Positions 59,113 to 59,370 of a stretch of DNA of 62,419 nt are shown here, in pieces. Below the pieces are notes generated by a model. The model saw nothing but the letters and a program-made list of their open reading frames with translations. It did no database searches and was not told where the DNA came from. Within the stretch, counting starts at the first letter, position 1; each line of letters starts with the position of its first letter. The position numbers and the translations under genes were made by a program. The stretch comes from an uncultured Heliobacteriaceae bacterium. Its GTDB lineage: Bacteria > Acidobacteriota > Blastocatellia > RBC074. Location: contig CAZBPH010000001.1 of NCBI GenBank assembly GCA_964493645.1, positions 7,974 through 70,392 of the forward strand, in the 5' to 3' direction.

Positions 59113-59370
59113 ATGACACAGGAAGAATTGCTCAATAACCAGAAGACCATCCTGGCGAACCAGGAAGATATTCAATCAAATCAACGAAACATCAAACAGG
59201 TGTTGGACGCGATCCTCGCGAACCAGAAGATACTTTTGGCCAATCAGGATCACATCCAGGCCAACCAGACTAAACTTGACGCTCTGCTCGCCAATCAGGA
59301 TCTCATCCAGGCCAACCAGGTGAAGATTCTGGCGAATCAGACAGAGATTCTGTCATTGCTGGCTGAATAA
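59113..59370 (+). CDS. 85-aa heptad-repeat (A-N-Q-x-x-I/L-x) coiled-coil mini-protein, paralogous to the bEBP N-terminus
   Basis: ATG at 59113 with GGGAGA about 11 nt upstream. The sequence is MTQEELLNNQKTILANQEDIQSNQRNIKQVLDAILANQKILLANQDHIQANQTKLDALLANQDLIQANQVKILANQTEILSLLAE. Third-position variation between repeat units argues for selection on the protein. It lies 49 nt upstream of the receptor gene with no intervening terminator. Confidence 0.65.
   Translation: MTQEELLNNQKTILANQEDIQSNQRNIKQVLDAILANQKILLANQDHIQANQTKLDALLANQDLIQANQVKILANQTEILSLLAE

Follow-up and report, generated by a model that had tools for sequence, protein, structure and literature searches.

In a 62,419-nucleotide stretch of contig CAZBPH010000001.1 from an uncultured bacterium of the Blastocatellia (hereafter the window, at its full length), three consecutive genes on the forward strand outline a candidate regulatory system built on coiled coils with an Asn core. 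The first gene (57572..58786) encodes a sigma-54 bacterial enhancer-binding protein (bEBP) of 404 residues, in which an N-terminal Asn-core coil is followed by an AAA+ domain with a GAFTGA motif and a Fis-type helix-turn-helix (HTH). The second (59113..59370) encodes an 85-residue mini-protein predicted to form a single long helix, with Ile or Leu at heptad position a, Asn at position d, one stammer (N51–N61) and a hydrophobic C-terminal cap, ILSLLAE. The third (59420..62419) encodes a TonB-dependent-receptor-like outer-membrane protein (OMP; CarboxypepD_reg and OMP_b-brl_4, 9e-99) and runs off the end of the window. Three putative enhancer palindromes and a putative sigma-54 promoter precede the mini-protein gene. 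The activator carries a copy of the mini-protein at its N-terminus, which suggests that the two would pair to regulate transcription.

The mini-protein is a conserved gene encoding an Asn-core helix

Translation of 59113–59367 on the forward strand gives MTQEELLNNQKTILANQEDIQSNQRNIKQVLDAILANQKILLANQDHIQANQTKLDALLANQDLIQANQVKILANQTEILSLLAE. Asn occupies residues 9, 16, 23, 37, 44, 51, 61, 68 and 75, and also 8 and 26; Val stands at residue 30. Ile or Leu is found four residues past each Asn, at 13, 20, 27, 34, 41, 48, 55, 65, 72 and 79. Since the step from I to N is +3 and the step from N to I is +4, the only consistent core register places I/L at a and Asn at d, with nine Asn-at-d layers that have I/L at a. 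One interval breaks the heptad: N51 and N61 are 10 residues apart (KLD-ALL-ANQ), which corresponds to one 3-residue insertion, or stammer. The protein has no Gly and no Pro, and Leu, Gln, Asn, Ala and Ile account for 59 of its 85 residues. At least six N-N(+7) pairs, the observed number, were reached in only 7.5e-5 of 200,000 shuffles of the mini-protein's own composition, and the periodicity of I/L/V/M/N is strongest at 3.50 residues.

The AlphaFold model, computed with a small alignment, displays one uninterrupted helix from residue 3 to 84 with a mean predicted local distance difference test score of 97.5. Neither a signal peptide nor a hydrophobic or membrane segment is found in the mini-protein, which starts MTQEELL. 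It is predicted to be a cytoplasmic protein consisting of one long amphipathic helix.

At the DNA level, base identity within the open reading frame (ORF) is 0.45 at lag 21, against 0.23–0.37 at the remaining lags below 42, which is a weak signal. Tandem Repeats Finder reports no array within the ORF, and the Asn codons are mixed (AAT five times, AAC six times). These results bear on a first-pass annotation of the same DNA. The positions it had given for Asn, Val and I/L agree with the translation, its register is the one that the spacing enforces, and its single 3-residue insertion is the N51–N61 interval. It had also described a 21-nt periodicity with synonymous drift, of which the lag-21 signal and the use of both Asn codons are weak traces, and its view that the repeat is no slippage artefact holds, as no tandem array was found.

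Related loci are designated by L numbers below. Comparing the mini-protein with its 91%-identical orthologue in L006, an Acidobacteria metagenome-assembled genome (MAG), gave dN = 0.044 and dS = 0.222 (NG86), and thus a dN/dS of about 0.2. A Shine-Dalgarno-like GGGAG (59098..59102, forward strand) lies 10 nt before the ATG, and a GGGAG/GGGGA/GGAGG box occupies the same place in L006, L007, L009, L010, L013, L022 and L027. Purifying selection, this conserved ribosome-binding site (RBS) and hundreds of homologues with the same pattern together indicate that the ORF is a real gene.

A widespread family shares the heptads and the stammer

A profile search against 1.84 billion representatives returned 761 clusters (50% identity) at E ≤ 1e-3 and 279 at E ≤ 1e-10. 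Nearly all members are small. Many gene calls of the family carry spurious N-terminal extensions, and the trimmed size is about 54–106 residues. We considered the large proteins in the profile search as informative fusions and rejected them, as they are eukaryotic low-complexity repeats or merged gene calls. In a separate case, P0004 (110 aa, on a 927-bp metagenome contig), no stop codon separates the small ORF from the signal peptide that the next gene encodes, which reflects either a sequencing error or a natural fusion. A genome scan with the single mini-protein as query found matches in Acidobacteriota (Blastocatellia and Acidobacteriaceae), Myxococcota, Planctomycetota, Spirosoma and Chthonomonadales. 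Across several phyla, the pattern is kept at the protein level with different codons. The mini-protein therefore appears to be one member of a large, functionally unannotated family, not a one-off.

From 146 representatives, we defined the features of the family. The spacing between NQ dipeptides is 7 residues in 708 cases, 10 in 190, 14 in 21 and 17 in 13. Position a is Ile (74%) or Val (15%), b is Leu in 55% of heptads and c is Ala in 50%; Gln fills e without exception, although the NQ dipeptide itself served as the anchor for the positions, and g is for the most part uncharged or mixed. Exactly one decad, with the consensus NQxKLDx[IVL]LANQ, is present in 91 of the 146 representatives, so that the 3-residue insertion of the mini-protein is characteristic of the family as a whole. 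The family hallmark is a series of [I/V]-L-A-N-Q-x-x heptads (hydrophobic a, Asn d, Gln e) together with one decad, NQxKLDxhLANQ.

We notice a different arrangement in Myxococcota. The long members in L011 (5974-6492), L014 (about 6001-6423), L015 and L019 consist mostly of consecutive 10-residue units (NQKKLDAIVA), with up to about ten in a row in L011. Such units imply a core periodicity of 3.33 residues, which a canonical coiled coil should hardly accommodate.

The mini-protein matches nothing in Pfam or NCBIfam at E ≤ 1 beyond noise, and nothing meaningful in PADLOC. The sole match in PHROGs is phrog_24169, a small family of unknown function with the same repeats. Searching PDB sequences with the single mini-protein returned nothing; with the family profile, the best match is the trimeric N-terminal coil of YbgF/CpoB, which is non-significant (E = 0.046 over 39 residues). 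Foldseek found 0 matches in the PDB for the single-helix model, as expected for one helix. A literature search with sequence strings gave nothing relevant, and the source databases list the members as 'hypothetical', with no useful names. The first-pass annotation had pointed to homology searches as the place where its reading could fail; no characterised family claims the mini-protein.

The activator begins with a paralogue of the mini-protein

The activator matches Sigma54_activat (PF00158, 3.7e-70), AAA_lid_14 (PF25601) and HTH_8 (PF02954) in Pfam, and its translation contains EKGAFTGA and Walker motifs. The N-terminal domain of the activator (residues 1–65, 57572..57766, forward strand) and the mini-protein are paralogous: in the domain, residues 9, 16 and 23 are Asn, the stammer comes next, S33 and N40 follow, and the ending is LLAE. 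By BLASTP, residues 4–57 of the activator align without gaps to residues 32–85 of the mini-protein at 50% identity (E = 9e-13). The match covers three Asn layers, the stammer and the layers after it, as well as LLAE at the end, and in the family alignment (A4) the domain constitutes a complete minimal family member. The AlphaFold model of the activator shows a helix at residues 3–65 and a break at DPFGEMIG, followed by the AAA+ domain. The N-terminal coil has a dN/dS of about 0.10.

The activator is made of the coil, the AAA+ domain and the HTH only, and no conventional sensor domain is present. A search with its first 75 residues found only P0001, a chimera in L001 that is described below; coil-type activators thus look rare. 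Meanwhile, a sigma-70-like promoter (TTGTCA, 18 nt, TATATT; 10/12) lies at window positions 57503-57532, about 40 nt upstream of the activator gene. Expression of the activator is probably independent of its own sigma-54 target.

Enhancer and promoter sites upstream of the mini-protein

The putative sigma-54 promoter TGGCATTTAAATTGCT (58939..58954, forward strand; –24 GG, –12 GC) is the sole match to TGGCA-N6-TTGCW in the 62 kb window, and it lies 159 nt upstream of the mini-protein ATG. All seven loci that were scanned have the core GGC-N7-TTGC, correctly oriented, ahead of the small ORF, where chance would give 0.06 per 400 nt. L027 is an eighth locus with this core and the same layout of enhancer and promoter.

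Upstream of the promoter, three putative enhancer palindromes (upstream activating sequences), GCGAWATATCGC, are spaced 19–20 bp apart on the forward strand (58786..58836). The copy at 58806-58817 is perfect, that at 58825-58836 has 1 mismatch and that at 58786-58797 has 3; the two best copies are the only matches with 0–1 mismatches in the window. The triplet recurs in L006, L007, L010 and L022, and a pair is found in L009 and L013. In all seven loci the central palindrome is 133–135 bp from the promoter, and the triplet of L027, read by eye, has a spacing of 136 bp. Taken together, the GCGATATATCGC palindromes and the promoter would have the arrangement of enhancer and promoter that is classical for sigma-54 systems.

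The leader of every related locus contains a conserved element, TTTGCYGGGA(W)GA, at 59011..59025 (forward strand) in the window and at L006 5953, L009 5962, L010 5777, L013 3450, L022 5798, L027 5464 and L001 5954. It is located 45–50 nt before the ATG of the small gene, except that insertions have shifted it in the window, L010, L022 and L027. The element also precedes the activator gene of L007 and the L001 chimera. The region 58700-59500 has no match in Rfam, and no conserved pairing was seen around TTTGCYGGGA when the loci were inspected by eye for a stem. As a second sigma-54 promoter the element was rejected, since its spacing fits only in L013.

Two N-terminal forms of the orthologous activators

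The orthologous activators, whose cores are 61–70% identical, come in two N-terminal forms. Coil-type activators of about 400 residues are encoded in the window, L006, L007 and L027. Flavoprotein-type activators of 880–890 residues are divergently transcribed in L009 (2917-5562), L010 (2611-5283), L013 (98-2770) and L022 (2843-5494), all on the minus strand, and on the P0005 contig. Their N-terminal region of about 540 residues includes a Trp-halogenase-like FAD domain, the presumed sensor. The linker LTDEYDP(F/V)GE connects either N-terminal region to the AAA+ core, and both forms are accompanied by the mini-protein gene, the palindromes and the promoter. As this unit occurs with either form, the mini-protein predates the swap. 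In the activator of this lineage, a complete copy of the module encoded by the neighbouring mini-protein gene took the place of the presumed sensor domain.

The L001 locus (identical to L008) preserves a trace of exchange between the two coding segments. At 5936-6227 it encodes a 74-residue chimera, produced by in-frame recombination of the activator coil segment and the small gene. The 5' part matches the activator upstream region and coil of L007 (87% over 190 nt), and the 3' part matches the L007 small gene (81% over 203 nt). The chimera indicates that the two coil-coding segments were similar enough for recombination. The AAA+/HTH core and the sigma-54 promoter are deleted here, the downstream OMP gene is truncated to 76 codons, and the locus looks decayed.

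In L027, two tandem small paralogues of 88 and 67 residues (5634-5900 and 5965-6168) follow the activator, with no OMP directly downstream. Concerning L009 (JAJNQA010000003.1, labelled as a Heliomicrobium sp. MAG), we notice that its OMP is 81% identical to that of the window and that its activator, promoter and small gene are of the Blastocatellia type. The contig is probably acidobacterial and was placed in a Firmicutes MAG through a binning error.

The mini-protein gene probably heads a transport operon

The gap between the mini-protein and OMP genes is 49 nt and holds no terminator-like site, and the two genes are probably co-transcribed. The order of a small gene followed by an OMP and/or a major facilitator superfamily (MFS) transporter gene is kept in L006, L007, L009, L010, L022 and the P0005 contig. 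In the operon of relatives, the MFS protein stands after the OMP or instead of it; the MFS protein found in Blastocatellia is monocarboxylate/oxalate-formate-like, of an organic-anion type. From this context, the mini-protein gene is predicted to be the first gene of a sigma-54-dependent transport operon.

Transporters also follow family members elsewhere. NMT1-type substrate-binding proteins of ATP-binding cassette (ABC) systems lie right after the small ORF in L002–L005 and L012 (6465-7661), which represent two unrelated lineages. A TauE/SafE anion exporter is encoded immediately downstream of the family member in L016 (6341-7336). In L014 (6813-9644), a large membrane protein with a cyclic nucleotide monophosphate (cNMP)-binding domain is encoded downstream, and L011 and L015 have downstream ORFs of similar sequence. 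These repeated downstream transporters may hint at a transport- or anion-related role of the family.

On the other side of the activator, the window encodes a GH88-like hydrolase and a short-chain dehydrogenase/reductase with KduD-like similarity (55386-57436, minus strand). An enzyme of the enolase superfamily, mandelate racemase-like, is encoded in L009 (1586-2890). Such neighbouring genes would point to the use of sugar acids, which fits an operon for organic-anion uptake.

A proposed feedback circuit through coiled-coil co-assembly

Our confidence is high for the descriptive part of this work: the gene and its family, the predicted helix, the arrangement of promoter and enhancers, the paralogy of the two coils and the exchange of N-terminal domains. 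As to function, we tentatively favour, at slightly below even confidence, the reading that the mini-protein acts as a feedback partner of the activator through coiled-coil co-assembly, by analogy with PspA and PspF.

In this proposal, the activator would drive the operon from the three GCGATATATCGC sites, to which it would bind some 134 bp ahead of the promoter. The module shared by both proteins would self-associate as a parallel, probably trimeric, Asn-core coiled coil. We consider a parallel trimer the most likely state because the published motif by which trimeric coiled coils bind chloride is [I/V]xxNxxx (PMC12933892) and because Asn at d is typical of trimeric adhesin stalks (PMC13580157); runs of Asn at d in trimeric autotransporter stalks, which the first-pass annotation had mentioned, are indeed documented in the latter work. 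The conserved single stammer would set the register of an otherwise slippery repeat. The free mini-protein could then co-assemble with the N-terminal coil of the activator, with which it shares the layout of three layers, stammer and further layers. The first-pass annotation had suggested partner-dependent assembly, an idea to which the paralogous coil in the adjacent activator lends indirect support; the promoter and enhancer sites, the operon, the activator domain and the size of the family were outside its account. Mixed assemblies would meet no obstacle in the charge pattern, because e is invariably Gln and g is uncharged or mixed for the most part. The concentration of the mini-protein, set by the activator, would feed back on the oligomerisation and activity of the activator. 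Because the activator would drive the synthesis of the mini-protein, the feedback loop would be closed, as in PspA–PspF. The loop might be negative, if the activator coils are capped or dispersed, or it might be positive.

Several observations weigh against this feedback circuit. The loci with flavoprotein-type activators offer the mini-protein no coil partner, and thus its ancestral role cannot be coil-coil pairing with an activator. Most members elsewhere (Acidobacteriaceae, Myxococcota, Planctomycetota and Spirosoma) have no nearby bEBP, and sigma-54-like sites upstream of these distant members are absent or unconvincing, so the general function of the family is not the control of bEBPs. 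For a simple trimer, it is unusual that 55% of heptads have Leu at b, which may reflect a different or higher-order assembly or a binding surface. Moreover, coil-type activators are known from only four loci, too few for co-variation tests, and we infer the trimeric state, the parallel orientation and the hetero-association.

A more far-reaching form of the circuit would amount to a new mode of sigma-54 activator control. Here, an Asn-core and possibly anion-gated coil would be the sole input of the activator, the paralogue made by the operon would titrate it into mixed trimers, and the more than 700 clusters of mini-proteins would be free-standing polar-core trimers. We regard this complete version as speculative and unlikely to hold in all its parts.

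Alternative explanations

The mini-protein may instead have a job of its own, as an accessory, adaptor or ion-binding protein tied to transporters, with the activator having merely captured a self-associating helix as a constitutive oligomerisation domain when its sensor was lost. This explanation is possible, if rather on the unlikely side. It draws on the coexistence of the mini-protein gene with coil-less flavoprotein-type activators, and on the members elsewhere that stand alone or head other transport operons (NMT1-type ABC, TauE/SafE, the cNMP-domain membrane protein and MFS). However, these contexts are heterogeneous and small in number. When a regulon opens with a small non-enzymatic gene next to that of its regulator, this typically marks a feedback modulator, such as PspA or ZraP. 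The fused copy has also kept the full module, including the register-setting stammer, with a dN/dS of 0.10 that speaks for strong purifying selection, and mixing with the free paralogue would be hard to avoid.

A second explanation, which takes up the anion idea of the first-pass annotation, ascribes the function to the Asn rings, which would bind a buried anion (chloride, nitrate or similar), making assembly anion-dependent and the mini-protein and activator domain a cytoplasmic anion sensor. Trimeric coiled coils coordinate chloride through a motif to which the [I/V]xxNxxx layers conform (PMC12933892), and Asn-at-d layers, both designed and natural, each hold one chloride (PMC13580157). In the MoMuLV TM trimer, halides raise the melting temperature by about 10 degrees (PMC12933892). 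Several family members, too, precede anion-type transporters. Yet that association comes from a handful of loci, and chloride binding was unfavourable in two of three simulated trimers, so the motif is no guarantee (PMC12933892). In addition, e is Gln in the family and not the Thr typical of the N(d)T motifs of adhesins, and cytoplasmic chloride is low and variable. We judge a dedicated anion sensor to be improbable.

The ORF might also be a regulatory leader, in which Asn and Gln codons let the speed of the ribosome report nitrogen or aminoacyl-tRNA status and tune the downstream genes, while the peptide itself is unimportant. A sigma-54 promoter, a first cistron, a long conserved leader and a content of 29% Asn plus Gln (25 of 85 codons) are what such a device might show. 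We consider it very improbable: at 85 residues the product far exceeds known leader peptides, and the hydrophobic a positions and the stammer are conserved across phyla, with a dN/dS of about 0.2. The same module serves as a protein domain in the activator, many family members are monocistronic, and the 49-nt gap contains no terminator or antiterminator and no Rfam element. The protein-level conservation, the length, the missing terminator-like site and the lack of an Rfam match likewise set the ORF apart from leader peptides and attenuators.

Finally, a chance frame across a degenerate 21-nt DNA repeat, to which the weakly raised lag-21 identity (0.45) might point, has next to no probability and is already refuted by the comparative data, given the lack of a DNA tandem array, the purifying selection, the conserved RBS and start codon, and the hundreds of homologues in several phyla.

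Comparison with known systems

The feedback circuit that we favour combines a core chemistry and a circuit logic that each have precedents. Trimeric coils with Asn at d occur in the stalks of autotransporter adhesins and in retroviral and filoviral fusion proteins, and resemble the present family in their aliphatic or beta-branched a positions, their Asn at d and their consecutive heptads. Adhesins with 16–37 consecutive Asn-at-d heptads are documented (PMC13580157, PMC12933892), a Brucella adhesin having 37 (PMC13580157). The family differs from these stalks in several respects. Its members are free cytoplasmic proteins of 54–106 residues and, in addition, a domain of a transcription factor, and not anchored extracellular stalks; they have no signal peptide, head, membrane anchor or trimer-nucleating folded end adaptors. 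Position e is invariably Gln and not Thr, Leu at b and Ala at c are frequent, and a single stammer is conserved. The mini-protein does not belong to the trimeric autotransporter adhesins, as we found no signal peptide, no head or neck, no C-terminal YadA-type anchor and no Pfam match.

The N-terminal domain of YbgF/CpoB (PDB 2wz7, 2xdj) shares NQ-containing heptads with the family and is the best, non-significant match of the profile in the PDB, a weak similarity that is at most suggestive of a trimeric state for the module. Unlike the mini-protein, it is periplasmic and fused to tetratricopeptide repeats, and has Asn in a few heptads only. The trimeric coil of CpoB is dissociated by its partner TolA (PMC7391070), which provides a precedent for trimers under the control of a partner.

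The circuit is closest in its logic to the phage-shock system of E. coli. PspF is a sensor-less sigma-54 activator, and the coiled-coil protein PspA is encoded by the first gene of the operon that it activates. PspA exerts negative feedback on PspF through direct protein-protein contact. The system described here has the same elements, namely a sensor-less activator and a coiled-coil first gene, the latter under a predicted sigma-54 promoter in 8 loci. PspA, however, has about 220 residues and binds the AAA+ domain of PspF, whereas two paralogous coils would make the contact proposed here, and one of these is part of the activator. The mini-protein is no member of the PspA/IM30 family, as it has no PspA_IM30 match in Pfam or NCBIfam at E ≤ 1.

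In bEBPs of the NtrC1/DctD type, the helix of a coiled-coil linker directly precedes the AAA+ domain and is so placed that it could control the assembly of the ring. A linker of this type is a short dimeric coil and connects a receiver domain; in the present activator, an Asn-core helix of 65 residues makes up the entire N-terminal domain, a Pro/Gly break comes after it, and the neighbouring gene encodes a free paralogue of the coil. What is already known, then, is the chemistry of the Asn-at-d core and, by analogy, a circuit logic resembling that of PspA/PspF. What would be new is the occurrence of such coils as free cytoplasmic mini-proteins and as the input domain of a bEBP, the invariant NQ with a conserved stammer, and the paralogy between a regulator domain and a regulated gene.

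Elsewhere, Asn-at-d cores have been described in extracellular stalks with an anchor and in designed constructs dependent on folded adaptors. With the family, the question of whether a polar-core coil folds by itself or requires ions or partners can be studied in a minimal system from nature. If the more far-reaching form of the circuit is true, the more than 700 clusters of unannotated mini-proteins from soil bacteria would be a natural counterpart of designed polar-core coiled coils. For annotation, our results offer a structural and contextual handle on several hundred clusters that are unnamed and often mis-started in databases. Sigma-54 regulation gains a candidate input domain and a candidate trans-acting partner for sensor-less activators, and the related loci constitute a natural experiment in which the same activator core is combined with a flavoprotein sensor or with a coil. 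In the latter, if the more far-reaching form is right, the assembly of the activator ring would be set by the stoichiometry of coiled coils, rather than by a ligand-binding or phospho-receiver domain.

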